Source: Candidatus Methanomarinus sp. HR1 | Lineage (GTDB): Archaea; Halobacteriota; Methanosarcinia; Methanosarcinales; Methanocomedenaceae | NCBI GenBank assembly: GCA_002926195.1 | Contig: MZXQ01000097.1 | Location: 1 to 32,821, forward strand | Direction of reading: 5' to 3' | Length of the DNA: 32,821 bases | Shown here: positions 2,120 to 25,596 of the stretch, piece after piece | Position numbering within the stretch: position 1 is the first letter of the stretch | Layout: each line of letters begins with the position of its first letter | Notes under the pieces: generated by a model | Databases searched by the model: none | The model's input: the letters and a program-made list of their open reading frames with translations, nothing else | Told to the model about the DNA's origin: nothing | Made by a program: the position numbers and the translations under genes

Positions 2120-4069
2120 ATGAAAAAACTGCTACCACTTGTGATTATGATTATCATAATATCACTATTGATCACATTTTCCGGATGTATAAAAAAAGCT
2201 GATGACCAAATTCCAGTACCATCTGAGCCATTGAATATTAGCAATGTAACAACAAAATGGGATCTTTCATTTTTATTTAATAGCAGAGTAGAAGCAGATA
2301 AAGAAGTGATGAGACTGGTAAAAATAGAGTTCGAATTAGAAGACAAATATATTAACAATTATTTCCGCCCTCAGTTCCAAACCTTAAAAGGCGAGGTTTT
2401 AATGGAGTATTTAGAAGAAGAAGAATATTATTTAGAATCTTTTGAGGCCTTATGGCAATATGCATTTGCTCAACACAGTCTAAATGTTAATGACCCGTAT
2501 TTTAATAACCTTCTCTCGGATATGCAGGATTTAAGCACAAAACACGATGAAGCTACATCCTTTGTTGAAGTAAAGCTCACATCTATTTCAGAAGATGAAT
2601 GGGATCGGATATTTAGTGAAGAACCGGGACTGGAGAAATATAGACCCTACCTGGAATCCAATTATATAAGGTATAAAGATCATAGACCTCATAATGAAAA
2701 CCACAATGCATATCTTACCGAAATTATAAATCAACTGATGAAACTTGAAACAATTGCAACAACAGAAATTACTAATAACGTTACTAAGCCTGGAAATATA
2801 ACTCTTGATAATGGGGAAGAATATGCAATTAATTCACAATCCTTTTATTTTCTTCTTTATACTGATAATAATCGAAAAAACAGAGAGAAATGTTACAATA
2901 AAAGATTTGATCATTTGATCAATGAATCTGATAAAATGGCAGAACTCTACAATGAAAAATCAAAATTAGATGACAAACATGCAAGAGAATTGAATTACAC
3001 TGATGCCTTTGAAGCCAGCTTGTTTTGTTCCTATCTTGAAAAAGAACAAATTGATGATATGAATTCGGTTTTAAAAAAACGGAAAAATGTATTTGACGAA
3101 TATTTTGAGTTCAAAAGGAATAAACTCGGACTTGATCAATTAAGACCTTATGATATTTACCTACATTTATCAGAAGAACCGATCCAGTATTGCAATTACA
3201 CTGATGCACTGCTTGATATACAACAATCCTATTCTTCGATGGATCCTGAATTTAATCGAATTTTCATACAAACCGTAACCGGTAATTGTATAGATGTTTA
3301 TCCAAATCCTGAAAATGGGAAACAGTCGGGTGGTTATTGCTTTGGTCCCTGTAAGGAAGATACATTTCCACTAATTTTTTTGAACTATAACGGATTAATC
3401 TCAGATAAAAAATCAATTACCCGTAAAATGGGTTATGGATTTTATTTTTATTTGGTGTACAATAACGTTGACTATCTTTATTGTGACGGTACAACATATG
3501 AGATGGAGATTCCTTCTACCTTCAATGAAGAGTTATTTATTGATTATATCATTAACAATAAAAGTAATGAAACAGTAGTTTCTATGCTGTCCCAGCATAT
3601 CGAAGATTATTATAGCTATTTCACTACCCAACCTTTGATCACAGAATTTGAATACGAGGCACATAGATTATGTTCTAAGCAGGATAATATTAGCGGTGCT
3701 GATCTTAACTCATTGTGGACAAATCTGTCAAAGGAATATAGGAATGAAAAAATAAAATATTATGATGAGGATTCAGCAGAATGGATACTTTTTAAACATA
3801 TTTATTTTACATACAATTATCATACATATAATTACGCAATTTCAAAGGCGATAACCCTCTCTCTTTTTAAACAATATAAAGAGGACCCACAAAAATTCAA
3901 TGAGAATTATATAGAATATCTAAAAGCAGGTACAACGATCACTCCACAGGAAAAATTAAAGAAATATTTTAATATCAAAATAGATGAAAAACTATTTGAA
4001 GATGCAATGGACGTTGTAGAATCAAGAGTAAATACACTGATAGAACTTGAAAAAGAAACTGTCGAGTAA
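2120..4069 (+). CDS. Lipoprotein, M3B oligoendopeptidase-F (PepF) homologue with a degenerate zinc site (predicted pseudo-peptidase)
   Basis: Signal peptide plus lipobox-like ITFSGC. PepF-like landmarks are WDLSFLF near the N-terminus, IDVYPNPENGKQSGGYCFG and PLIFLNYNG. At the position of HEXXH the sequence reads RKMGY (3422-3436). The downstream EIPSTFNEEL segment is retained. Confidence 0.65.
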   Translation: MKKLLPLVIMIIIISLLITFSGCIKKADDQIPVPSEPLNISNVTTKWDLSFLFNSRVEADKEVMRLVKIEFELEDKYINNYFRPQFQTLKGEVLMEYLEEEEYYLESFEALWQYAFAQHSLNVNDPYFNNLLSDMQDLSTKHDEATSFVEVKLTSISEDEWDRIFSEEPGLEKYRPYLESNYIRYKDHRPHNENHNAYLTEIINQLMKLETIATTEITNNVTKPGNITLDNGEEYAINSQSFYFLLYTDNNRKNREKCYNKRFDHLINESDKMAELYNEKSKLDDKHARELNYTDAFEASLFCSYLEKEQIDDMNSVLKKRKNVFDEYFEFKRNKLGLDQLRPYDIYLHLSEEPIQYCNYTDALLDIQQSYSSMDPEFNRIFIQTVTGNCIDVYPNPENGKQSGGYCFGPCKEDTFPLIFLNYNGLISDKKSITRKMGYGFYFYLVYNNVDYLYCDGTTYEMEIPSTFNEELFIDYIINNKSNETVVSMLSQHIEDYYSYFTTQPLITEFEYEAHRLCSKQDNISGADLNSLWTNLSKEYRNEKIKYYDEDSAEWILFKHIYFTYNYHTYNYAISKAITLSLFKQYKEDPQKFNENYIEYLKAGTTITPQEKLKKYFNIKIDEKLFEDAMDVVESRVNTLIELEKETVE

Positions 4070-10277: not shown

Positions 10278-10972
10278 AACTAATTGTAATAGCAGGCACA
10301 CCCGGTTCAGGAAAAACATCGGTATTGATACATACCATCAAACTGCTTGAAAAAACCAGTGCTTCGCCCTGCGTTGTTAAGATAGACTGCCTATGGACTG
10401 ATGATGATAAAAGGTTTAACAAGCTTAACATACCTGTACGTATCGGTTTATCAAAAGATATGTGTCCTGATCATTTTGCAATTTATAATACTGACGATAT
10501 GCTTGAATGGGCCGCAAGAAACAACGCTGATATTCTGCTCAATGAGACCGCAGGTCTGTGTCTGCGGTGTGCACCCTATCCTGATGGGTGCCTGGCTGTA
10601 TGTGTGATTGATGTGACCACTGGTCCCAATACTCCTTTAAAAGTGGGGCCGCTTCTGACCACAGCAGATGTGGTAGTAACAACCAAAGGAGATATTGTAT
10701 CACAGGCTGAGCGGGAAGTATTCAGAGAGCGTGTCATTGAAGCGAATCCGCATGCCCGGATCATAGAAGCAAATGGTCTTAGCGGACAGGGTGCGGCAGA
10801 ACTTACCAAGATCATATTAAATATGCCTGCAACCGGAGATGATCTATCCTTAAGACATAACGCCCCTCTGGCAATATGTACATTATGCACAGGAGAGATG
10901 CATGTATCAAAACGGTATCATATGGGTGTGTTGCGGCATATTGACGGGTCAATGGGGTACAAAGGAGAATAA
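10274..10972 (+). CDS. G3E-family P-loop GTPase (HypB/UreG-like metallochaperone type), divergent
   Basis: Walker [29 protein letters not shown] aligns with the HypB DLLxIENVGNLVCPAxxxLG block. TKGD corresponds to the NKxD G4 motif. MCPDH (10463-10474) lies where UreG CPH and HypB CH metal ligands sit. ATGA overlap with the ABC gene. Confidence 0.7.
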
Positions 10973-11628
10973 TGAAAGACATAATTGATCTGCTTCCCGG
11001 GTTTAATTGTGGGGAATGCGGATTGCGGCAGTGCAGGGATTTTGCAGCAGCACTGGTTAATAATGAAACAGAACTTACTTGCTGTCCTCATCTGTATAAG
11101 GACAGATTTATCAGTAATATCAAATCAATAGAGAAGATTCTTTACGGATTGAAAAACAGTCAAAATGATACCCATAAAGAACCTGCCCGGATAAAAGGTA
11201 TTATTGACGGACTTGAAGCGGATTTTATTCTTGCTCCACTCTTAGATGAGACGTCATGCAGGGAATATTTGCATCCGTTCGATCATGAAACAAAACCTAA
11301 GGTAGATGAAGTTCTCAGGTATAGACCAATGGGATGTCCGATAACACATTTTGCCAGGGTACTGGATGTGGATAAAGGCATCATTACTGTACATATGGTC
11401 GGACCGCTTCATAGAATTGGAGATAAAGGTGCGCAATATCGGGATATCGGGTTATGTATGATCATCGGGTTTGATGGTATTGTCATTAAAGGCCGGGTGC
11501 CTGATGTTAGTGAAACGGTAAAGTTTCTTCCTGAACATTGTATGATGCAGAAAGTACATTCTGGTGTTGTGGTTCATTCGGAAGGTAAGCGTGTGAGGAT
11601 CGAGAGCATTGATCTGAAGGTATGGTAA
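10972..11628 (+). CDS. Fe-S-domain protein: RnfB/CFeSP-type N-terminal 4Fe-4S domain plus an uncharacterised C-terminal domain
   Basis: LPGFNCGECGLRQCRDFAAAL...CCPH matches the CxxCxxxxC...C putative Fe-S cluster domain found at the N-terminus of RnfB and corrinoid Fe-S proteins. TAATG overlap with the upstream GTPase gene. Confidence 0.65.
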   Translation: MKDIIDLLPGFNCGECGLRQCRDFAAALVNNETELTCCPHLYKDRFISNIKSIEKILYGLKNSQNDTHKEPARIKGIIDGLEADFILAPLLDETSCREYLHPFDHETKPKVDEVLRYRPMGCPITHFARVLDVDKGIITVHMVGPLHRIGDKGAQYRDIGLCMIIGFDGIVIKGRVPDVSETVKFLPEHCMMQKVHSGVVVHSEGKRVRIESIDLKVW

Positions 11629-13050: not shown

Positions 13051-14310
13051 TTATAATTCGCCAACAGAGGAAATATTCAGATCTACCGGTACTTTCGTGA
13101 TGTTTCCTATTTTTGCACCAATAATATCCTGTATTTCTTTTCCAGTAGCAATATCTACCAGTCGTTGGGTTACTACTCCATCAAATACAATACTTTTAAC
13201 CCTGTTGTCCACATCCTTCATTGAATTGGCCAGATCCCTTACTGTAACTTCTTTAATGACCTTTTTATTTTTATCTAAAAACCGCGCACTCAACGTGCCA
13301 TGAAGTTCATTCATATGAGTTTTAAATTCATTGGATATTGTAGGAGTTGCTTGTTCCGGCCTTCTGCGGGGGCGCTCTGCTAACCTGGGCTTGGCGACTG
13401 GAGCTTTTACTACTCTTTGCCTGATTTCCGGTCTCTCTTCTCTTTGCTTCGATTGAGGAATAGGTCTTGCTCTTCTACCGCCTATTTGATACCTATCCAT
13501 TGCCTGTTCTACTGGTATTTTCTGGCGAAGGGACTTTACAATCTCTTTTTGAACCAGTTCCTCAACTCCTTTGCCATCCGGAGCCCTTGCAATAAAATCA
13601 ATATCTGCAACCTGTAGTAATTCTTTAATAATCAGTTCACCACCACGGTCCCCATCAGTAAAAGCAGTAACTTTCTTCTTTTTACATAGATCTATGACAG
13701 TCTGAGGGGCATTGGTACCCCCAACTTCGATAGCGTTCTTGATCCCGTACTTTAGCATATTTAGTACATCTGCCCGTCCTTCTACTACAATAATGGCATC
13801 AGAAGTAGCAACATTAGGTCCGCAGGGAATATTATCCTTACCATAGAATGTCAATTCTTCAATTCTTGCAGCTTCCTTTACTTCATCAGTAATCTCCTGA
13901 CTTTCCGGCCAGCTGTCATCGAACATATCAGTAAGAATATATTTAGCCCTTTCAATTATTTGTTTTCTTTTGGAATGTCGGATATCTTCTATCTTAGCAA
14001 TCTCAATATTTGCCATACATGGTCCGATCCTGTCTATTGTCTCCAGTGAAGCAGCTAATATAGCTGTTTCTGTCTTATCGAGACTCGAAGGAATATCTAT
14101 ATTGCCAATCGATTTGCCTACACTGGATCTAATATTAACCTCTATTCTACCGATCCGTCCTGTTTTTTGAAGGTCACGAAGGTCAAGGTCATTACCTAAT
14201 AATCCTTCGGTTTGACCAAATATTGCACCAACTACATCAGGTCTTTCAACTATACCATCAGCTTTTATTTTTGTATGAATTATATATTTTGTAGTATCTG
14301 TATTTTGCAT
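13051..14310 (-). CDS. dnaG: Archaeal DnaG primase-like protein (Toprim domain; exosome-associated)
   Basis: N-terminus [32 protein letters not shown] is characteristic of archaeal DnaG. Toprim motifs are [10 protein letters not shown] and FTDGDRGGE. Confidence 0.92.
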
Positions 14311-14821
14311 ATGAATTACCTCTCTTAATAAAAAATAGTAAGGAAAATATCGGTTTACCTGAAATAAAAGAGTTCAAAATTATTGAACATTATATACAAA
14401 TTTTTTTGAATCATATGACCTCTGTAGCTATAATTGCTTATACATGGAAATATAATCCTTTTTCCAAATTGCTCAATAATAGCGTTCTTTTATGACATCT
14501 GATGATAAATATAAGATGTCTCTTAATTTAATTAAGCAATTCCTTATTTAATGTAAATATACCGTTATTTATTGTTTTTTTTAACCCTTTTCCTTTACTA
14601 CTCTATTGAATACCCCATTTATATAATAATGATTTTTATGATTGTTACATAAAGACTCTATATTTAAGGATATACTGAAGTATGATATTATTCCTACTAT
14701 TTTAATTATTAAATTTCACCTATTAATATTAATTACATTTGATTATAATGTTATAATTTTCAATACCATTATTGTTGAGACTATATATTAAGTTATGGTA
14801 TTTATAATAATACTATCATGT

Positions 14822-15139
14822 TCATTCATAACAAAATACTTTTAACAAATCAAGTACCTGTTTAACGTCCATACCCTTAATGAGCACTGTCTTCTTATGA
14901 CTGGTTTGCCCTGAAATAAGAGTGATATCAGATTCACTGACCATCAATATTTTAGATAACTCGTTAATCAATTGCTTATTAGCTTTCCCTTTTTGTGGCG
15001 GCTGTGTGAGTTTAACTGTGATACGTTTTCTCCATGGATTATATCCACTTATAATCTTAACATTCTTACTTTCGGGTATTACTTCCAGATCAATAATAAC
15101 ACCGTTAGACGATTTCTTCACAGCATCTGTTATAGTCAT
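14822..15139 (-). CDS. DUF167 / YggU-family (UPF0235) protein
   Basis: 105 aa. PESKNVKI...VKLTQPPQKGKANKQLINELSKIL...GQTSHKKTVLI matches the family pattern. Confidence 0.75.
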   Translation of the reverse strand: MTITDAVKKSSNGVIIDLEVIPESKNVKIISGYNPWRKRITVKLTQPPQKGKANKQLINELSKILMVSESDITLISGQTSHKKTVLIKGMDVKQVLDLLKVFCYE

Positions 15140-15169
15140 TCATTTCACGGTTAAAAAAAATATAAGAAA

Positions 15170-15254
15170 TGCGGGGGACGTGATTCGAACACGCGTACTC
15201 CTACGAGAATAGCCCCTCAAGCTATCGCCTTTGACCTGACTGGGCAACCCCCGC
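15170..15254 (-). tRNA. tRNA-Leu (anticodon GAG), class II with a long variable arm; no encoded CCA
   Basis: The reverse complement folds by hand. Acceptor GCGGGGG/CCCCCGC, 3-bp D stem, anticodon stem ATAGC/GCTAT with loop TTGAGGG, variable arm TCTCGTAGGAGTAC, T arm GCGTG-TTCGAAT-CACGT, discriminator A. Confidence 0.9.
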
Positions 15255-15270
15255 ATAGGGTCTATCAGAT

Positions 15271-16074: not shown

Positions 16075-16464
16075 TTATACTCTTCTACCTCTACGTCCAC
16101 CTTTGGCTTGAGTACCGTCGTGTGGTGTGGGTGTTACATCTTCTATCCTGCCTATTCTGATACCTGCTCTGGCAAAGGCTCTTATGGCTGCTTGTGCACC
16201 CGGACCGGGACTTCTCTGTTTATTTCCACCGGGGGCACGTACTTTAACATGAATACCCATTATATCTTTATCCTTGAGTTTTTCTGCCAGTATATTTGCC
16301 ATTTGCATTGCCGTATAAGGAGAACTCTCATCACGAGCAGCTTTCACAACCATACCGCCGCTTATCTTGGCAATGGTCTCTGCTCCTGTTACATCTGTAA
16401 TAGTGATTATGGTATTATTAAAGGATGCATGTATATGTGCTACACCCCATTTTCCTTCTGTCAT
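16075..16464 (-). CDS. rps11: 30S ribosomal protein S11
   Basis: [18 protein letters not shown]...VKVRAPGG...[10 protein letters not shown]. Confidence 0.95.
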
Positions 16465-17096: not shown

Positions 17097-17567
17097 CTAA
17101 TTTACTTTTCTCTTAACACCGACAACAAGACCTCTTCTACCTGTAGATTTGGTTCTCTGTCCTCTAACTTTATGCCCTCGTTCATGTCTTATGCCTTTAT
17201 ATGAACGGGTCTTTTTCATGCTATTAAGATCTTCTCTTTTAATTAACAGTACATCAGTAGCAACAATATGTTTATCCTCGCCACTTAAATAGTCCTTACG
17301 CCTGTTAAGCATCCACACAGGTAAAATTGATTCAATATCATCTACTGTTTTATTCAGGGTTTCTATCTGCTCATCCTCAAGATAGCCCATGGTCGCTGCA
17401 GGGTCTACGCCTGATATATCAGAAATGATCCGTGCTGAGCGGCGGTTAATTCCTTTTATGCCTGTTAATGAGTACTGAACACTCTTTTTTCCTTCCAGGT
17501 CGGTATTAGCGACACGGACAATATGTTTAATCTCTTCTTGTTCGGTTTTTTCTTTTGGTTCTGCCAT
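17097..17567 (-). CDS. rps13: 30S ribosomal protein S13
   Basis: IVRVANTDLEGKKSVQYSLTGIKGIN...YKGIRHERGHKVRGQRTKSTGR. Confidence 0.95.
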   Translation of the reverse strand: MAEPKEKTEQEEIKHIVRVANTDLEGKKSVQYSLTGIKGINRRSARIISDISGVDPAATMGYLEDEQIETLNKTVDDIESILPVWMLNRRKDYLSGEDKHIVATDVLLIKREDLNSMKKTRSYKGIRHERGHKVRGQRTKSTGRRGLVVGVKRKVN

Positions 17568-17840: not shown

Positions 17841-18086
17841 TTATGCTGCAATTTCGATCGTTAATGAATTTACCGGACAGTTCTTAACACAGATGCCGCA
17901 GGCTTTGCACAGGTTGTAATCTATAACAGCCATTCCATTGGACACTGCAATGGCCCTTGCTTCCGTATCAACATCGAAGTCTATATCTTTTTGTTGCTTT
18001 AAATTACTGGGACACACTGATGCACAGTTGCCACAGCCAATACAACTCTCTTCTGAAAGTATCAGTTTCTTATCTTTCTTTGCCAT
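17841..18086 (-). CDS. 2x[4Fe-4S] ferredoxin (81 aa)
   Basis: CIGCGNCASVCP and CKACGICVKNCP. The track ORF extends to 18194, but the internal ATG at 18086 (MAKKDKK...) gives a normal ferredoxin length. Confidence 0.8.
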   Translation of the reverse strand: MAKKDKKLILSEESCIGCGNCASVCPSNLKQQKDIDFDVDTEARAIAVSNGMAVIDYNLCKACGICVKNCPVNSLTIEIAA

Positions 18087-18266
18087 ATTGAATTCCCTCA
18101 ATAATATTATTCTTTGGTATGTTCTATTATTTGCTATAATAAGAACGTTTCGAAATATACCGGAGGTCTTTAAATGATGAAATAGAAAAGTCATATGATA
18201 AATAGAAGAAGAACTTAAATATCAACATCAAATCCGATTTCCGGTTACAGGGAAATATATGCTAAT

Positions 18267-20463: not shown

Positions 20464-21126
20464 ATGTTTGATGAAATAGAAAAGAAATGGGCATCTATGG
20501 GAGGTGCTGATGGGGTATTAGGCAAACCCTACGGTGAATCCAGAAAAACCATTGATGGTAATGGAAAATATCAGCGGTTCGATAACGGTTCGATCTACTG
20601 GAATCCAGATGTAGGAGCTTTTTATATTTACGGCGTGGTCGAAAGTAAGTATACGAAAATGGGATATGAGTCAAGTTATCTTGGATTCCCCACATCAGAT
20701 ACTATTGATCTTGGTGATAAACGCAGTTATAACAACTTCACCGGAGGAGTTATTTACTGTCATCCTCTTTTCCACTGCATTGCATTACGCGGTCCGATAC
20801 TGGATAAATGGAAACAAATGGGGGCCGAGAAGAGTGTAATGGGATATCCTGTCAGGGAAATTCAGGCTACAGAGGACGGCAAGGGTGAATGCCAGCACTT
20901 CCAGTTCGGAGATATCTACTCACATCCTGATCACGGAATCTTTGAGATGAGAGGCCGCCCAAGGATCGAGTGGTATAAATTAGGAGGACTGAATGGAAAA
21001 TTCGGCCCACCTGTTTCTGAAGTCACAGAGAGTGAGGATGGGAGTTACCAGAACTTTAAGCATGGGACAATCGTCTGGCATGGAAAACAACAGAAAGTTG
21101 ATATTCAGGAACACGGAACTGCATAA
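20464..21126 (+). CDS. LGFP-repeat protein (four tandem repeats of about 54 aa), no signal peptide
   Basis: Repeats start at IEKKWASMGG..LGKP, VESKYTKMGY..LGFP, ILDKWKQMGA..MGYP and PRIEWYKLGG..FGPP. Each is followed by a G-x-Q-x-F-x-x-G-x-I-Y/W core. Confidence 0.75.
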   Translation: MFDEIEKKWASMGGADGVLGKPYGESRKTIDGNGKYQRFDNGSIYWNPDVGAFYIYGVVESKYTKMGYESSYLGFPTSDTIDLGDKRSYNNFTGGVIYCHPLFHCIALRGPILDKWKQMGAEKSVMGYPVREIQATEDGKGECQHFQFGDIYSHPDHGIFEMRGRPRIEWYKLGGLNGKFGPPVSEVTESEDGSYQNFKHGTIVWHGKQQKVDIQEHGTA

Positions 21127-21257: not shown

Positions 21258-21473
21258 TCAATCCAGATATCCCAATGCCCTCAACCTCCCCTTAACTTTC
21301 TCCTCATCTTCCTCCGAAAACACCTCTTCAGGCTCTTCGTCTTCAACCTCTTTAATAACTTCCTCTAATACGAATGTTACATACTTATCCACGGATTCAA
21401 AACCCGTCTCTTCAAGCCTTGCTTCAATTTTACTTATCATCTGCTTTGGGATTTTTATTTCACCATATTCCAT
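21258..21473 (-). CDS. Small acidic ribbon-helix-helix (CopG-like) protein, paralogue of 25091-25303
   Basis: 71 aa. EIKIPKQMISKIEARLEETGFESVDKYVTFVLEEVI has the beta-strand plus two-helix RHH pattern. A poly-acidic linker follows, then the C-terminus RLRALGYLD. Confidence 0.6.
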   Translation of the reverse strand: MEYGEIKIPKQMISKIEARLEETGFESVDKYVTFVLEEVIKEVEDEEPEEVFSEEDEEKVKGRLRALGYLD

Positions 21474-21481
21474 ATTGTCAC

Positions 21482-22192
21482 CTATCTCATTTCTTTAATT
21501 ATCTTAGCAAAATCAGTAATTCCAGGATTACCCAGATCTTTGAAATCCGTACTCCAGAACCCATAATTAGAATGGTCTCCGAATATACCTATTTGCTCCA
21601 TTCCGTGATCAGACAGTACAATAAACTGATTCTTCATACTACCGGCAATCTCATCAAGATCCTTATAGATCATTTTCATCATAGTCCTGTTTCCAAAATT
21701 CAAATGTCCGATAACATCAGCCACACTGAAATAACCGAGTATAAAATCATGGTCTGCTTCTAAAACATCAATGAATTCCTCTTTTATTTTTCGATGATGT
21801 TCAAATGCAAGGTTGTTATAATCCACTCTAACCTGACCTTTTTCTTCTTCAGACTGTGCATCAAAGAATTCCTTAAGCAATTTACGCTCCTGATCATGCT
21901 GATCTGTAATATAACTAAATCCGGGCAGATCTATGATCTTCGGATTTTCGAATTGATCAAAGAAGGTATCCTTTATGTCCAATTTGGTATTCCACATATC
22001 TTTATCCCCTTTGGCCAGGATCTCTTTTTCCATATTTTTTCCTGTCATAAACGAACTCCAGAGCACCATAGTCCTTGGCTCTGAGAACTCGGAGATGTTC
22101 GTCTTTCCATAATATTTCTGCTTCAAATTATTACAATCGAACTTTTCAACCAGTGTATATTCCAGAGCATCAATAGCTAATACTGTGATCAT
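21482..22192 (-). CDS. Miniature alkaline-phosphatase-superfamily (nucleotide pyrophosphatase/phosphodiesterase-like) metalloenzyme
   Basis: 236 aa with the superfamily landmarks in order: VLAIDAL (N-terminal metal Asp), [15 protein letters not shown] (nucleophile region), VADVIGH (DxxxH) and LSDHGM (DHG). ATGA overlap with cysN. Confidence 0.55.
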
Positions 22193-23427
22193 TGTACCAG
22201 CTCCGTAATAATGCCACCGGCAAGAGTATCATCAGTTCTAAGTACAAACCGTCCCAGTTCTTCTATTGTATTAAAATTCTCAACAACAACAGGTTTATCA
22301 GTTTTAATAATTATATCTGCCACTTCCCGATTCTTGATCTCATCCGCATCTTCAGCGATCAAATCAAGAGTAGAAGAATTAATAACTCTGCTTATCTTTT
22401 CAATTTCACATGCTACATCCTGTGTAGCGCACCTGAACCATAAGGTATCGCCTTTATTATAAGGAGTATTATCCATCCAGAATATATTAGCTCTAATATG
22501 GTTAGTTAATACCGGGACATCTCTATCATGCACAATTACATCACCTCTGTCAATGAACAATTTATCCTCAGTAATAATACCTGTACTTTTTCCTGCTTCA
22601 GCTTCTGTTACATTTTTTAGGAACTCTTCTACGGATTTTACCGTTGTTTCTTCACCTGATGGCAGTATCTTTATCTTATCTCCTTTTCTTATGATCCCGC
22701 TTTCAACCCTTCCTGCTATAATGCGCTTATCAAAATTATAGACATCCTGAACCACAAAACGTAAAGGTTTATCCTTTGCACTTTCTTTTACTCTAAATGA
22801 ATCCAGAGCTTGCAGGAAGTCCGGACCCTGATACCAATCCATATTTTCATTTTTTCCGGCAATAAGATCTCCTTCTTTCGCAGAAATAGGTACTATATAG
22901 GACGGTTTAATGTTTATCCCTGATAAAAAATCAAGAAGTTCTTTTTTTACAGTTTCAAACTTTCCCCTCTCATAACCCACCATATCCATTTTATTAATAA
23001 CTACAATCACCTGGTCCAGCCCCAGCATTCCAAGAATGTAAGCATGTCTCTTTGTCTGTTCCTTTACCCCCTCATCGACATCCACTATAAGCACAGCAGC
23101 TTCTGCCTGGGATGCACCACTGATCATATTCTTAATAAATTCTACATGTCCCGGAGCATCTATGATCACATAATTCCTTTTTGTAGTGTTAAAAAAAATC
23201 TGAGCAGTGTCAATAGTAATACCTTGATCCCGTTCTTCTTCTAGATGATCCATAACATAACCGAATTCTATATCCTTACCAAGGCTTTTGCATATCTGTT
23301 CGATCTCTTCGATCTTACCTTTGGGAAGTGAATCCGTATCATATAGCAATCTTCCGATCAAAGTACTCTTTCCATGGTCAATATGACCGACAATTACAAA
23401 TTTTAAATTTTCTTTATCCATATTCAA
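22189..23427 (-). CDS. cysN: Sulfate adenylyltransferase subunit 1 (GTPase, EF-Tu/EF-1alpha-like), without an APS-kinase domain
   Basis: [47 protein letters not shown] and NKMD, followed by two beta-barrel domains. 412 aa. Confidence 0.85.
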
Positions 23428-23431
23428 ATCC

Positions 23432-24253
23432 TCAATATATTATCAATTTAGTCAGTATCATCATACCGAGAAATGTTGTTACTCCCCCGATCATTAAGGT
23501 AAATTTTTTGGCCGGCATTATCTTCACAGTATATACTGATAGTGGTACTGAGACCAGGGAACCTATTACCAGATACGGAACAAGTATCCAGTCAACCTGT
23601 TTGGCAAAATAAAAATAAGCTAAAACGCCTACCAGACACGTCACTCCTTCTGCCAGGGCAGTTATACCTATTGAACTTTTACTATTAACTCCTGATAGTA
23701 TCTGGCCTGATACTATCAACGGACCGTATCCTCCACCGGATATGCCTTTGTTAAATGATGCAAGAGCACCAATACCAATTATTCTTTTCCATGAAAATTT
23801 AACCTGAGTCTTATGTTTTATCAAAACAAGAATTCCCATAGACATTACAAGAAGTCCGATATATAGTTCAAGATAGAACACAGGTAATCTCAATGCAATC
23901 AACACAGCAATAATTACTCCTGCTATACTGCAAATTACCAGCACCAGTGCTATTTTAGAATCAGTTGATCTCGGGATGTATCCAAGTTTTCCCAATCTTT
24001 TTACGATCTCATGTTCATGATCGTTCTTAAAATCAAATGAGACATTACCTGCTCCATGATGCAGTACGGCTGCAATCATTCCTGCAATGAACTGTGCCAG
24101 TAGAATTGCAGGTACTACCTGAAGTGGTGAGAAGCCCATTAATAGCAGTATAGGAGTAAGTGAAGTACCGTATCCCATACCAAGTGTCGCATCAATATAT
24201 TCTATTCCTATTGATATCAACAAGACACTGATAAGTAAAAATTCAACAGCCAT
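23432..24253 (-). CDS. TauE/SafE (TSUP) family anion permease
   Basis: Multi-pass hydrophobic protein with Gly-rich helix starts ([27 protein letters not shown]) typical of the family. The track ORF starts at TTG 24286 and would overlap cysD by 14 nt. ATG 24253 is the alternative start. Confidence 0.7.
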
Positions 24254-24272
24254 TTGTATCTTAAATGAAGAT

Positions 24273-25076
24273 TTACATATACCCAAGAGCCCGCAATTTC
24301 TGCATTACATATGCACTTTCCTTATCCTGTGCACGCCCGGACCGTTCGGATATTTTAGTGGTCATTAATTCTTCCACGATCTTATCAACAGTATCGGCAT
24401 CCGAATCAACCGGCTCACAACAGGTTTCACATCCTATGCTGCGGTATCGTTTACCATTGTTTGCAAAATATAGATCTACTACAGGGATATTTTCCCTCTG
24501 GATATATTTCCAGATATCCTGTTCGGTCCAGTGCAGCAGTGGATGAACTCTTATATGCTGCTCACCTTGCTGCTGGTTCTTGAACTGATCCCACAATTCA
24601 GGAGGCTGGTCTTTATAATCCCACTTGAACTGTTTATCTCTTGGCGAAAAGACACGTTCCTTTGCTCTAATACCATGCTCATCCCTGCGGATACCTAAAA
24701 GTAATGCTTTGAACCCGTATTTATCAATAGTCTGTTTGAGAGCTTCTGTTTTTAATTGCCCGCAGCATGCTAATTTATCACTGGCATCAGGTCCCATACC
24801 TTCATTAAGGGATTGCCCATTCTTACCTATTATAAGTTCCATATCCCATTTATCAGCCCATTCGCTTCTAAAATCATAAATCTCCTGGAACTTATAGCTT
24901 GTATCTATATGCAGTGCAGGAAATGGGACTTTACCATAAAAGGCTTTTCTGGTAAGCCACATAAGAGTAGTAGAATCCTTTCCTATACTCCATAATATAG
25001 CAATGTTTTTAAACTGTTTATAAGCTTCACGGATTATATAGATACTCTGGCTTTCTAATTGATCCAAATGCTTCAT
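24273..25076 (-). CDS. cysD: Sulfate adenylyltransferase subunit 2 (PAPS-reductase-fold ATP pyrophosphatase)
   Basis: LESQSIYIIRE, SIGKDSTT (PP-loop SGGKDS-type), FPALHIDT, GIRRDEHGIRAKERVFSPRD, PLLHWTEQDIWKYI and TTKISERSGR closely parallel bacterial CysD. Confidence 0.9.
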   Translation of the reverse strand: MKHLDQLESQSIYIIREAYKQFKNIAILWSIGKDSTTLMWLTRKAFYGKVPFPALHIDTSYKFQEIYDFRSEWADKWDMELIIGKNGQSLNEGMGPDASDKLACCGQLKTEALKQTIDKYGFKALLLGIRRDEHGIRAKERVFSPRDKQFKWDYKDQPPELWDQFKNQQQGEQHIRVHPLLHWTEQDIWKYIQRENIPVVDLYFANNGKRYRSIGCETCCEPVDSDADTVDKIVEELMTTKISERSGRAQDKESAYVMQKLRALGYM

Positions 25077-25090
25077 TAAATATTTCTCCC

Positions 25091-25303
25091 CTATAAATAT
25101 CCAAGTCTTTTAAGTCTTTGTTTTATTATTTGAACTTCTTGTTCAGTAAGATTGTCTTCTTCAGTTATCTTGCCTGTGGATGCAAGTGTTCGCATAGTAA
25201 ACACTATAAATTCCGTGGTGCTGGAGAAACCTGTACCTTCTATCATTTGTTGAAGTGTTTCATATAGCTCCCTGGGAATTTTAATGGTAACTTTATCTTT
25301 CAT
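25091..25303 (-). CDS. Small ribbon-helix-helix (CopG-like) protein, paralogue of 21258-21473; first gene of the cysD operon
   Basis: 70 aa. TIKIPRELYETLQQMIEGTGFSSTTEFIVFTMRTL aligns with the other small protein (IKIP, TGF-S, hydrophobic helix). C-terminus RLKRLGYL. Confidence 0.6.
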   Translation of the reverse strand: MKDKVTIKIPRELYETLQQMIEGTGFSSTTEFIVFTMRTLASTGKITEEDNLTEQEVQIIKQRLKRLGYL

Positions 25304-25596
25304 AAGACTCTAATTGTAGTACGATTTGAGTGTGGTTAAATGTTTCGGTGAATACGAAGTCTTCTATAAGTCTGGCTAAATTTAATTTGACTAATATTTC
25401 CATACTTGCATTCTTTAGAAAATAATCATCCATACAAACCAGAGGTTTTTCATGAAATTTTATAATCGAGAAGAAGAATTGTTTTCTTGGGTAGTATAAA
25501 ATTTTTTTTACAAGGGTTTAATGTATCTGAGGTCAATAAGATCATAGATAATCATGCTACATTACACAGGATTTATTACGGGATTGAGTTGATACT

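Follow-up and report, generated by a model that had tools for sequence, protein, structure and literature searches.

Six minus-strand genes of Candidatus Methanomarinus sp. HR1 are read here, with slightly better than even confidence, as an autoregulated archaeal sulfate-activation cassette supplying cell-envelope glycan sulfation, and not assimilatory reduction to sulfide. They lie at positions 21258-25303 (minus strand) of the window, i.e., the whole stretch of 32,821 nt that was analysed, and an ORF check of the window recovered all six, tightly packed, at the coordinates of the original prediction. The invariant core of the cassette consists of CysD, CysN, a mini alkaline-phosphatase-fold enzyme (mini-AP) and at least one ribbon-helix-helix (RHH) protein, whereas the TauE permease fills an optional, interchangeable slot. 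From upstream to downstream, the features are:

25334..25346, minus strand: predicted BRE/TATA-like promoter element; window GAAACATTTAACC, family consensus GAAAC(T)TTTATATA
25306..25332, minus strand: candidate palindromic operator of 27 bp, ACACTCnAATnGTA-TACnATTnGAGTGT, between the TATA element and the first-gene ATG
25091..25303, minus strand: RHHb, ribbon-helix-helix protein, 70 aa; Pfam RHH_1 23.3 bits (cut-off 20.5); ends ...QRLKRLGYL
24273..25076, minus strand: CysD, short anaerobe-type, 267 aa; NCBIfam PRK05253 360 bits; PP-loop SIGKDS; tail ...MQKLRALGYM
23432..24253, minus strand: TauE/SafE (TSUP) putative anion permease, 273 aa from ATG; Pfam TauE 92 bits
22189..23427, minus strand: CysN, EF-1alpha-like GTPase without APS-kinase domain; TIGR02034 349.8 bits (cut-off 336.1)
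21482..22192, minus strand: mini-AP, alkaline-phosphatase superfamily with NPP-like core, 236 aa; start overlaps the cysN stop (ATGA)
21258..21473, minus strand: RHHa, RHH paralogue, 71 aa; acidic linker, tail ...EEDEEKVKGRLRALGYLD

Organization of the locus

Every junction agrees with the claim that all six genes overlap or lie at most 19 nt apart: gaps of 14, 4 and 8 nt separate RHHb from cysD, the permease from cysN and the AP-like gene from RHHa, respectively, cysN and the AP-like gene share an ATGA overlap, and cysD and the permease overlap by 14 nt (TTG start) or are separated by 19 nt (ATG start). For the permease, the ATG start (24253) is better than the alternative TTG at 24286, which gives 284 aa, because homologues align from residue 11-12 and independent gene calls yield 273 aa. 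The family assignments of CysD, CysN, TauE, RHH and the AP-like protein agree with the profile scores, the PF01663 match of the latter being weak (21.9 against a cut-off of 23). At least 15 independent contigs in ENA, JGI and NCBI assemblies carry the exact CysD protein together with the same six genes and a gyrA neighbour. Hence, the locus is not an assembly artefact. In the window, it is surrounded by gyrA, the gene of an LGFP-repeat protein and housekeeping genes, and glycan genes do not adjoin it.

A search of the window with an annotated CysC as query detected no APS kinase, and PAPS reductase or sulfite reductase domains occurred in none of the 26 window ORFs scanned, a set to which four ORFs reaching 110 aa or more do not belong (10972-11628, 16075-16464, 17097-17567 and 17841-18194). 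CysN is indeed devoid of a fused kinase domain, as had been described, and the window, as scanned, contains neither cysC nor reduction genes. The earlier picture of a self-contained, co-transcribed module, combining a putative anion permease, predicted GTP-coupled APS synthesis, an AP-fold enzyme and a pair of paralogous RHH proteins, is supported.

CysD, CysN and the variable slot

CysD matches PDB 1zun_A with an E-value of 1.6e-67 and falls below two equivalog cut-offs, yet stands far above the threshold of the CysD subfamily model. Its identity to bacterial CysD proteins is at most 50%, and it is about 35 aa shorter than these. Assimilatory APS reductase (CysH-type; PDB 7lhr, 2goy) has the PAPS-reductase fold in common with CysD, and the CC and S-I-G-C-x-x-C stretches of the window CysD align exactly on its CC...CxxC motifs, Cys104, Cys105, Cys216 and Cys219 taking the positions of the [4Fe-4S] ligands in the alignment to 7lhr. 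In 54/54 CysD sequences, neither the four cysteines nor the GYM end vary, while the signature is missing in the proteins of E. coli, Sphingobium, Streptomyces and P. syringae and in S. meliloti NodP. CysD probably carries a [4Fe-4S] cluster. Since SIGKDS and the CysD-type C-terminus are intact and the C-terminal catalytic Cys motif of reductases is absent, the protein is best taken for a sulfurylase that bears a cluster site of the reductase type, and not for a reductase. Among bacterial proteins, the closest CysD of this Fe-S type (Ilyobacter) belongs to a cysC/AprA-like/ferredoxin reduction operon.

CysN comprises 412 aa from its TTG start, or 410 aa from the ATG at 23421, and shows recognisable G1, G3 and G4 motifs. 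Its scores against EF-1alpha models are just as high, the top PDB match being an aEF1A chain (3wy9_A, 278.9 bits, against 277.1 bits for CysN 1zun_B). The permease between cysD and cysN, considered a distinctive trait in the original prediction, is present but does not define the system. Indeed, the slot has three states, being occupied by TauE in 19 loci, by the 70-aa membrane protein DUF2061 in 14 loci, and otherwise empty. In 4 loci, the cassette also encloses HIT proteins, a group of nucleotide-linked hydrolases or transferases.

The mini alkaline-phosphatase-fold enzyme

The mini-AP gene occupies the position of CysC in bacteria. Its product has 547 homologues at 57-80% identity and retains all catalytic residues, D8, T41, D159, H163, D195, H196 and H207 being invariant in 65/65 sequences and forming a complete Thr/bimetal NPP-like site. 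No PDB sequence match was found; the AF2 model (pLDDT 83.8) gave NPP/ENPP proteins as best structural matches, which are weak (E 3e-3, TM 0.35-0.49). These closest folds are those of AMP-binding nucleotide pyrophosphatases. In glycan clusters that have no CysN, sister AP proteins are paired with small PP-loop/PAPS-reductase-fold proteins. Thr as nucleophile is typical for phosphoryl, not sulfuryl, transfer, and a role of mini-AP in PPi hydrolysis or PAP/AMP processing matches the data about as well as sulfuryl transfer.

RHH proteins, promoter and shared C-terminal tail

RHHb has orthologues at 51-89% identity across loci. RHHa has no Pfam match but is homologous along its entire length to the RHHb family (hhalign 99.6%, E 5e-24), in keeping with the proposed paralogy of the two proteins; one source names a member of its cluster an Arc/MetJ-type RHH regulator, and in many loci it follows the AP gene on the downstream side. 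The position and sequence of the TATA-like element are kept in 12 aligned upstream regions (Methanoperedens, Methanosarcinales, Methanothrix). The palindrome, likewise kept in 12 loci, is matched on either strand and occurs nowhere else in the window (0.09 chance matches expected). Both elements abut the first ATG, from which the first-gene mRNA would be near-leaderless, and the palindrome may be bound by the RHH proteins.

An acidic linker followed by L-x-x-LGY[LMIF] forms a tail common only to CysD, RHH, APS-reductase-like paralogues and sister AP-fold enzymes. LGY[LIMF] ends were found in 130/4701 six-frame segments (79 RHH, 48 CysD and 3 APS-reductase-like paralogues), and the tail is also carried by 6/27 sister AP proteins. 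In one locus (L078), CysD retains the tail even though the interval from TauE to AP holds no cysN. The C-terminal tail of the ribosomal P-stalk protein aP1 binds aEF1A and other translational GTPases; the cassette tail may be likened to it, in pattern only, by its acidic flexible linker, its short hydrophobic/aromatic C-terminal helix and its possible EF-1alpha-family GTPase partner. The Fe-S signature of CysD, the tail shared by CysD and RHH, and the conserved promoter and operator had been missed in the original prediction.

Distribution and genomic neighbourhood

The core RHH-CysD-CysN-miniAP(-RHH) was found in about 60 species-level reference genomes at 55-85% identity, so that the gene order, whose possible uniqueness to this contig had been raised, recurs in other genomes. 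Its hosts include Halobacteriota (Methanosarcinales, Methanoperedens), Thermoplasmatota (Thermoplasmata), Hadarchaeota, Altiarchaeota and many small-genome DPANN, among them a Woesearchaeota with a 0.92-Mb chromosome; none of the 62 loci is a CysDN cassette from Halobacteria. Given this spread across archaea down to very small DPANN genomes, the module is not specific to methanogen/ANME sulfur physiology, first taken as the setting. The recurring order is RHH-CysD-(TauE/DUF2061/HIT)-CysN-AP-(RHH), a divergent lineage having CysD-AP-CysN-DUF2061, and an intein and a free homing-endonuclease gene were noted among the loci.

Glycan-type genes account for 42/88 immediate neighbours of the cassette and 131/361 flank genes overall (raw counts), and they occur in 40/49 loci having at least four flanking genes. 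By Pfam, the flank families comprise Wzx-type flippase, UDP-glucose dehydrogenase, NAD epimerase/dehydratase, GT1/GT2/GT4, DegT, ABC-2 exporter and NTP transferase. Further neighbours are Thr-type sulfatase-fold or NPP-fold proteins, the "sulfatases" carrying Thr instead of the C/S-x-P-x-R motif. Canonical flanking cysC-cysH-sir genes, the other possibility that had been raised, are absent here and in 58/61 related loci: an APS-reductase-like paralogue adjoins the cassette in only three loci, sulfite reductase was found in none of the 61 and APS kinase in no locus. No family of classical sulfotransferases, CysQ or APS kinases recurs in the 139 other flank proteins. Of the end products left open in the original prediction (assimilation, a sulfated metabolite or sensing), this context clearly favours a sulfated metabolite, specifically envelope glycans. 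As the window copy is not beside glycan genes, the glycan link in Methanomarinus is drawn entirely from orthology.

Proposed role and comparison with known systems

According to the proposed scheme, sulfate would enter or be handled at the membrane via the TauE/TSUP permease, or DUF2061 in other lineages. CysD would convert ATP and sulfate to APS, driven by GTP hydrolysis by CysN, as strong homology suggests. The translationally coupled mini-AP would then act on the adenylyl-sulfate nucleotide; our best guess is a sulfuryl transfer that depends on APS and has a conserved acceptor, for which PAPS would not be needed, while PPi hydrolysis pulling the equilibrium is the less likely option. Variable AP/sulfatase-fold and glycan enzymes, beside the cassette in other genomes, may place the product on uronic-acid-containing surface glycans, a step suggested by genomic context and by the Halobacterium Agl30/Agl31 precedent. 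Both RHH proteins would repress the operon at the palindrome overlapping the transcription start. Their tail, the same peptide as the CysD end, may dock onto a shared partner, most likely CysN, which would make transcription dependent on the enzyme complex and its state; the partner could instead be mini-AP or other tails. We know of no cassette host in which a sulfated glycan is documented.

The cassette resembles bacterial CysDN/CysDNC and rhizobial NodPQ-NodH in its heterodimeric GTP-coupled ATP sulfurylase, and its CysD retains the bacterial C-terminus basic-x-G-Y-[FM]. NodPQ and mycobacterial CysDNC are dedicated copies that serve sulfation of secreted or surface glycoconjugates and not cysteine synthesis, as is proposed here for the cassette. 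Besides, DUF2061 accompanies, as in the 14 archaeal loci, the Nod-factor sulfation module of Mesorhizobium (nodBC-nodIJ-sulfotransferase-DUF2061-cysD-cysN/kinase). Unlike these systems, the cassette has neither an APS-kinase domain or gene nor a NodH-type PAPS sulfotransferase, mini-AP filling the kinase position, and RHH regulators with the CysD tail are unique to it. Agl30 and Agl31 of Halobacterium salinarum are genetically proven N-glycan sulfotransferases of alkaline-phosphatase/sulfatase fold (Zaretsky et al., 2025; PMC11980604), a study whose scope does not extend to their sulfate donor. These AP-superfamily enzymes belong to archaeal glycan clusters and take part in uronic-acid sulfation, and the cassette neighbours comprise UDP-glucose dehydrogenase, epimerases and Thr-type sulfatase-fold or NPP-fold proteins; Agl30 and Agl31 are sulfatase-like and larger than the 236-aa mini-AP, and the likeness is one of fold class. 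In Methanothermococcus thermolithotrophicus, archaeal sulfate activation is also clustered with non-canonical nucleotide-handling enzymes, a DHH-family PAP phosphatase replacing CysQ, but its homo-oligomeric Sat, APS kinase, AprAB-like PAPS reductase and Fsr (Jespersen et al., 2023; PMC10322725) have no counterpart in the cassette, where CysDN and an AP-fold enzyme are used.

Alternative functions

A first step of assimilatory sulfate reduction is the best-placed alternative, although we consider it unlikely. APS/PAPS reductases, together with sulfite reductases (alSir, Fsr), whose genes lie outside the cassette, would turn cassette APS into sulfide, mini-AP being accessory, e.g., a pyrophosphatase or a PAP/AMP phosphatase. 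This is the published interpretation for ANME CysDN and agrees with the strong CysD and CysN homology. For ANME and Methanoperedens, Yu et al. (2018) reported CysDN alongside homologues of APS/PAPS reductase and two sulfite reductases, and they also reported CysN peptides in seep metaproteomes (PMC6286981), and as these reductase homologues are encoded elsewhere, cassette APS could also feed assimilation there. The three loci with an adjacent tail-bearing APS-reductase-like paralogue and the Ilyobacter operon point the same way. Against it stand the scarcity of nearby reductases, the absence of sulfite reductase and APS kinase from all loci and the dominance of glycan genes. The cassette is moreover common in DPANN and other small genomes, which generally lack amino-acid biosynthesis, and in the sulfidic habitats of its hosts the cost of ATP and GTP per sulfate would be hard to justify.

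Supply of sulfite for sulfonates, either coenzyme M in methanogens/ANME or UDP-sulfoquinovose for glycans, appears improbable. A small APS-reductase-like partner would release sulfite from APS, followed by an SDR-type synthase or ComA/cysteate synthase. To our knowledge, the sulfite source for coenzyme M is an open question, which speaks for this route, as do the tail-sharing small Fe-S PAPS-reductase-fold paralogues adjoining the cassette or sister AP genes, one sometimes directly followed by an NAD-epimerase/dehydratase-family gene (L071). Coenzyme M was also raised as a possible sink by Yu et al. (PMC6286981). However, most loci have no reductase-like partner, and the recurrent SDR of about 315 aa beside UDP-glucose dehydrogenase resembles, by N-terminal sequence and Pfam, UDP-glucuronate epimerase and not an SQD1-type enzyme. 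Coenzyme M is not known to be synthesized by DPANN, Thermoplasmata or Hadarchaeota.

Finally, adenylation of another oxyanion or substrate (selenate, molybdate/tungstate, phosphonate), or a mobile translation-linked, defence or toxin-antitoxin-like module with RHH proteins as antitoxin-like regulators, is very improbable: the equidistance of CysN between EF-1alpha and CysN profiles, the equivalog scores of CysD, the frequency of RHH proteins in toxin-antitoxin systems, and the very high cross-phylum conservation with intein and homing endonuclease, compatible with frequent horizontal exchange, are outweighed by the wide margin in the CysD subfamily model, the coherence of TauE, DUF2061 (NodPQ-linked in Mesorhizobium), HIT and APS-reductase-like partners with adenylyl-sulfate chemistry, the absence of a toxin-like gene, and a PADLOC search returning no defence family except weak BrxP-domain similarity.

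Sulfate activation for envelope glycan sulfation would thus be the function of a module that is very strongly conserved in archaea yet unstudied. If true, these archaea would possess a dedicated sulfate activation that bypasses PAPS and decorates surface sugars instead of feeding cysteine.

Structure and setting of the operon

All six ORFs of the minus-strand operon put forward in the original prediction were recovered, together with the gaps and overlaps between them.

Genes of the operon in order of transcription, with profile support
25091-25303, minus strand: RHHb, small ribbon-helix-helix protein (ORF listing; RHH_1, 23.3 bits, cut-off 20.5)
24273-25076, minus strand: CysD (ORF listing; PRK05253 subfamily model, 359.9 bits, cut-off 195)
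23432-24286 (TTG start) or 23432-24253 (ATG start), minus strand: TauE-family permease (PF01925, 92 bits, cut-off 32.6)
22189-23427, minus strand: CysN (TIGR02034, 349.8 bits, cut-off 336.1)
21482-22192, minus strand: mini-AP, alkaline-phosphatase-like protein of 236 aa (PF01663, 21.9 bits, below the cut-off of 23)
21258-21473, minus strand: RHHa (no profile match; homologous to RHHb)

From RHHb to RHHa, the successive junctions are a 14-nt gap, a 14-nt overlap or 19-nt gap, a 4-nt gap, an ATGA overlap and an 8-nt gap. The exact CysD protein and the same six genes are recorded on at least 15 contigs (ENA, JGI and NCBI assemblies), hence the operon is real and not an artefact. Under two stricter equivalog models, CysD scored 275 bits against 396.6 (TIGR02039) and 285 bits against 413 (PRK12563). 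The EF-1alpha model PRK12317 gave 368.8 bits with CysN, short of its cut-off of 502 and above the TIGR02034 score, and the matches of CysN to PDB were similar for aEF1A (278.9 bits) and CysN (277.1 bits). The assignment is supported by the pairing of this gene with cysD in about 60 loci. RHHa and RHHb are homologous over their full length according to family alignments (hhalign 99.6%, E 5e-24).

The operon is surrounded by archaeal housekeeping genes (Rpo3, S4/S11/S13, DnaG, GAN-type DHH, deoxyhypusine synthase, GyrA, GGR, haem/sirohaem), and Rfam and tRNA scans returned no RNA element at the locus. A defence or toxin-antitoxin function was rejected, since PADLOC found no relevant family for any of the six proteins: its only matches were weak similarities, one between CysD and a BrxP domain (39 bits), the other between CysN and LeoA (24 bits).

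Other features of the window were recorded on the way. A 220-aa protein with four LGFP repeats (155 bits) is encoded on the plus strand at 20464-21126, convergent with the end of the cassette, and its gene is missing from one of four near-identical contigs (L087). In actinobacteria, such repeats are associated with the cell envelope, so the protein may belong to the cell surface. Between a DnaG-like primase gene and tRNA-Leu(GAG) (15169-15255) lie about 860 bp without any ORF of at least 110 aa (14311-15168), overlapping the bin with the GC minimum of the window (28.5%, 14001-15000). Finally, a 649-aa ORF on the plus strand (2120-4069) has no Pfam match and is flanked by hemA/hemB and sirohaem-related genes, the latter encoding an AhbA/B-like regulator-fold protein and a precorrin-2 dehydrogenase-like protein.

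Recurrence of the cassette among archaea

The gene order recurs outside this contig. The AP-like protein has 547 homologues (57-80% identity), and scanning one genome per species yielded 62 loci onto which the six window proteins were mapped. The order RHH-CysD-(TauE)-CysN-AP-(RHH) was found in essentially all of them, with identities to the window of 60-85% for CysD, 54-81% for CysN and 49-80% for the AP protein. Carriers include Methanoperedens, Methanosarcinales, Methanothrix, Methanofastidiosum, Methanomicrobiales, Thermoplasmata and Methanomassiliicoccales, as well as Hadarchaeota, Altiarchaeota and Woese-, Nano-, Aenigm-, Micr-, Undin- and Diapherotrites-archaea, one of them being a 0.92-Mb Woesearchaeota chromosome. 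A few loci come from MAGs binned as bacterial, probably in error. At 50% clustering, the mini-AP family comprises a handful of representatives among 1.84 billion proteins.

Between cysD and cysN, 19 loci have TauE and 14 have DUF2061, a membrane protein of 70 aa; elsewhere the slot is occasionally taken by a HIT protein or is empty. The permease originally regarded as an atypical insertion is thus a lineage variant, and the invariant core consists of CysD, CysN, mini-AP and at least one RHH protein. In a divergent metagenome lineage of four loci (L072, L073, L074 and L080; for instance L080:7201-10140), the order is CysD-AP-CysN-DUF2061 with a divergently transcribed RHH gene upstream, and identity to the window falls to 40-45% for AP and 36-39% for CysN. 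The triad thus outlasts a change in gene order. In another locus, L078 (1-7557), cysD-TauE-AP genes occur with cysN absent between TauE and AP, followed downstream by three epimerase/dehydratase genes, an NTP transferase and UDP-glucose dehydrogenase; this may be a CysN-less variant, though the contig begins inside cysD.

In the Euryarchaeota MAG SM23-78 (L037:3484-5598, plus strand), cysD of the cassette forms one ORF of 705 aa, interrupted at the PP-loop by an intein (Intein_splicing 76 bits, LAGLIDADG_3 55 bits), and in a related locus (L036:3119-4057, plus strand) a free LAGLIDADG gene lies between cysD and DUF2061. We know of no report of an intein in any sulfate-activation enzyme. Its presence fits the extreme conservation and likely horizontal exchange of cysD.

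Genomic context and role of the cassette

All flanking ORFs were clustered and the clusters annotated, with Pfam applied to 139 other flank proteins. Glycan-type genes were present in 40 of the 49 loci having at least four flanking genes; they accounted for 42 of the 88 genes directly adjoining the cassette and, over all flanks together, for 131 of 361 genes, both being raw counts. The recurrent neighbours were NAD-dependent epimerase/dehydratase (21 loci), Wzx-type polysaccharide flippase (20), UDP-glucose dehydrogenase (13) and sugar-nucleotidyl transferase (10), along with GT2 and GT1/GT4 proteins, DegT aminotransferase, ABC-2 exporter, methyltransferases and polysaccharide deacetylases. 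Besides, an NPP-fold protein of about 500 aa was found near the cassette in 10 loci, and a PF00884 “sulfatase”-fold neighbour in nine loci has Thr where the nucleophile is expected, in place of C/S-x-P-x-R. The recurrent SDR neighbour is unlikely to be a UDP-sulfoquinovose synthase, given its size (about 315 aa) and its position beside UDP-glucose dehydrogenase.

The partners expected of other pathways were sought in the same loci. A tblastn search with the annotated Ilyobacter CysC gave no match in the window or the 62 loci, and no extra (APS-kinase) domain was found in the 412-aa CysN, in agreement with the original claim that cysC and an APS-kinase fusion are lacking. The claimed lack of downstream reduction genes also held, APS/PAPS reductase and sulfite reductase being absent among the window ORFs scanned. 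A small PAPS_reduct paralogue occurs in only 3 of 61 loci (L009, L035, L059), and the flank clusters of the compared loci include no sulfite reductase cluster. Among the 139 flank proteins, no classical sulfotransferase, CysQ or APS-kinase family was recurrent, and a NodH-like query gave one match only, at chance level. In every bacterial cysD locus inspected, cysC was adjacent or fused. The absence of APS kinase, the lack of a recurrent sulfotransferase or CysQ family and the rarity of reductases point in the same direction as the glycan neighbours.

A known counterpart is found on a Mesorhizobium huakuii symbiosis plasmid (L068, NZ_CP050299.1 413722-425910), where DUF2061 lies between a NodH-type sulfotransferase and cysD/nodP within the nod cluster, in the order nodBC-nodIJ-sulfotransferase-DUF2061-cysD-cysN/kinase. 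In this module, a CysDN paralogue of bacteria is devoted to the sulfation of a glycan. Archaeal cassettes and the nod cluster have DUF2061 in common, which suggests that in both domains this family goes with the activation of sulfate for sulfation; no functional study of DUF2061 was found in the literature. On the archaeal side, the N-glycan sulfotransferases Agl30 and Agl31 of Halobacterium salinarum, established by deletion and heterologous expression, have the alkaline-phosphatase/sulfatase fold and act on iduronic and glucuronic acid, the sulfate donor not being discussed (Zaretsky et al., 2025; PMC11980604). From the flanking genes, the DUF2061/Nod module and Agl30/Agl31, the supply of activated sulfate for envelope-glycan sulfation is the best-supported role of the cassette.

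The published reading of CysDN in ANME is assimilation (Yu et al., 2018; PMC6286981), and the genes of DPANN archaea have been listed simply as sulfate adenylyltransferase (PMC8091004). Assimilation fits the overall distribution and context less well than glycan sulfation. In the organism of the window, whose copy lies among housekeeping genes, the APS may still serve assimilation, alone or beside glycan sulfation. The original interpretation, a self-contained APS-forming module whose product could serve assimilation, a sulfated metabolite or sensing, finds partial support, and the comparison of loci narrows it to a module most likely activating sulfate for sulfation.

A putative iron-sulfur CysD

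The S-x-G-K-D-S motif of the PP-loop reads SIGKDS in the window CysD, G32 and K33 being kept in 53 of 54 sequences, and four cysteines (C104, C105, C216 and C219) are invariant in all 54 cassette CysDs. In a phmmer alignment, the segments “laCCgqlK” and “SIGCetC” of the window protein fall on “eCCrlrK” and “SIGCapC” of the APS reductase 7lhr. Such CC...CxxC motifs reportedly bind the [4Fe-4S] cluster of APS reductase, a finding attributed to Carroll et al. in 2005. The catalytic Cys at the C-terminus is absent from CysD, which, with its intact PP-loop, is therefore read as a sulfurylase with a reductase-type cluster site. Judging from these motifs, the cassette CysD is probably a [4Fe-4S] variant of the ATP sulfurylase subunit; no description of an Fe-S CysD was found in the literature.

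The solved CysD 1zun has neither the CC nor the CxxC motif, and the CysDs of E. coli, Sphingobium and Streptomyces as well as S. meliloti NodP are devoid of the four cysteines and possess an insert of about 25 aa that is missing from the cassette CysD. The CysD of the strict anaerobe Ilyobacter polytropus, encoded in a cysC/AprA-like operon, is of the short CC...CxxC type (49.8% identity). Hence, this type is an anaerobe-type subclass and is not unique to the cassette. The Ilyobacter locus, on plasmid pILYOP02 (L063, NC_014634.1 30461-43339), has the order DASS transporter-cysC-AprA-like adenylyl-sulfate reductase alpha-ferredoxin-cysD (Fe-S type)-601-aa GTPase, a pairing of CysDN and an Apr-like reductase that is reminiscent of the atypical PAPS reductase of M. 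thermolithotrophicus.

The mini alkaline-phosphatase-like enzyme

Seven residues of mini-AP (D8, T41, D159, H163, D195, H196 and H207) are invariant in all 65 sequences of the family alignment and form what is predicted to be a complete NPP-type, two-metal set with a Thr nucleophile. Many homologues have precomputed PF01663 matches, the window protein itself falling below the cut-off. The AlphaFold model is confident (pLDDT 83.8) and its best PDB matches by Foldseek are NPP/ENPP enzymes, though weak (E 3e-3, TM 0.35-0.49); these are nucleotide pyrophosphatases, many of them solved with AMP. The family profile gave no meaningful match to PDB sequences, therefore the similarity is at fold level only. 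The protein shows no signal peptide-like N-terminus.

The mini-AP gene overlaps the stop codon of cysN and occupies the place of CysC, which is fused to CysN in many bacteria. No fusion of mini-AP to CysN, CysD or a kinase was seen among the best 150 matches of a representative search over 1.84 billion proteins, the longest protein being 382 aa. Larger relatives of a sister clade (280-320 aa), carrying in databases only the name “alkaline phosphatase family protein”, are found inside glycan clusters; a metagenome scan with a narrow sister-clade alignment gave 13 loci. In several loci (L071:417-2971, L081 and L082:6603-7719), they adjoin small PAPS-reductase-fold proteins of about 195-220 aa without CysN, in which the PP-loop is intact or near-intact and the CC...CxxC motif is present. 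Such pairs could carry out the same chemistry in a minimal form that needs no GTPase. This neighborhood indicates that the constant partner of the AP clade is an adenylyl-sulfate-handling enzyme, and we place the predicted activity of mini-AP on the product side of the sulfurylase reaction. An association of CysDN with an AP-fold enzyme was not found in the literature.

As to the reaction itself, our committed guess, a tentative one, is APS-dependent sulfuryl transfer to a conserved acceptor. Two other proposals on the product side are each unlikely: hydrolysis of PPi, acting as a thermodynamic pull, and, taken together, phosphoryl transfer to APS or processing of PAP/AMP. The remaining probability falls to APS hydrolysis or a regulatory role.

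Candidate operator and shared C-terminal tail

Alignment of the regions upstream of the first gene in 12 loci revealed a common BRE/TATA-like element, GAAAC(T)TTTATATA, directly followed by the palindrome ACACTCnAATnGTA-TACnATTnGAGTGT and then TT-ATG. In the window, the palindrome (25306-25332) is matched on either strand and occurs nowhere else, against 0.09 occurrences expected by chance. It covers the expected transcription start of a near-leaderless mRNA, which is the classical place of archaeal repressors. RHH proteins bind such operator sites, and we infer autoregulation by RHHa, RHHb or both at this candidate site. A scan for sigma-70 promoters and intrinsic terminators, with a model not intended for archaea, gave counts at shuffle level.

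The regulators share their C-terminus with CysD, the ends being ...MQKLRALGYM in CysD, ...GRLRALGYLD in RHHa and ...QRLKRLGYL in RHHb. Among 4701 six-frame segments of at least 50 aa from the window and the 62 loci, 130 end in LGY[LIMF], and all of these are CysD (48), RHH (79) or APS-reductase-like paralogues (3). An acidic linker with a ...L-x-x-LGY[LIFM] end is also found in 6 of 27 sister-clade AP proteins, and the small CysD-like protein of L071 bears the same tail type in a ...LGYW variant. The tail is missing from the cassette mini-AP, CysN, TauE, DUF2061 and HIT proteins. Bacterial CysDs end in basic-x-G-Y-[FM] and, to our knowledge, have CysN as their only known partner. Besides, EF-1alpha relatives of CysN bind the ribosomal-stalk tail, which consists of an acidic linker and a hydrophobic end, and in PDB the window CysN matches best to the aEF1A chain of 3wy9. 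The simplest reading, with about even odds, is that the tail docks its bearers onto one common partner, CysN being the likeliest. However, the CysD of L078 keeps its tail (...RRLRAMGYM) without cysN in the cassette, which calls for caution; docking on mini-AP or tail-to-tail association are the alternatives. Were CysN the partner, an RHH protein competing with CysD for it would, speculatively, couple transcription to the assembly state of the enzyme.

A possible PAPS-independent route and its implications

The system reads as a variant form of the CysDN/NodPQ-type sulfate activation module, most likely serving sulfation. Undescribed features of the archaeal cassette are a mini AP-fold enzyme that stands in the position of APS kinase, the probable Fe-S CysD, the putative tail-bearing RHH autoregulators and a pan-archaeal spread including DPANN. 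A complete scheme, rather doubtful as a whole, would be a PAPS-independent archaeal sulfation in which Fe-S CysD and CysN produce APS, mini-AP uses it as direct sulfuryl donor and CysN is a tail-binding assembly hub. In this scheme, mini-AP, and not an APS kinase with a classical sulfotransferase, would pass the sulfuryl group to a nucleotide-sugar, a lipid-linked acceptor or an AP-fold sulfotransferase. By way of a portable C-terminal tail, which would mimic the ribosomal P-stalk tail recognized by EF-1alpha relatives of CysN, the CysN hub would bring in CysD and the RHH repressors along with APS-reductase-like and AP-fold enzymes.

If the sulfation reading is right, the “sulfate assimilation genes” commonly listed for ANME, Methanoperedens and DPANN metagenomes would be envelope-sulfation genes, and inferences on sulfur cycling by their hosts would change. 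The missing donor-synthesis side of the AP-fold archaeal glycan sulfotransferases would have been found, possibly with a route without PAPS. It would also define an enzyme family of 236 aa that is open to testing and ranks with the most conserved proteins of anaerobic archaea still lacking a characterised function, and add an unreported, probable Fe-S class of CysD. Finally, a short docking tail common to enzymes and their own transcriptional regulators would couple the state of the enzyme complex directly to its expression.
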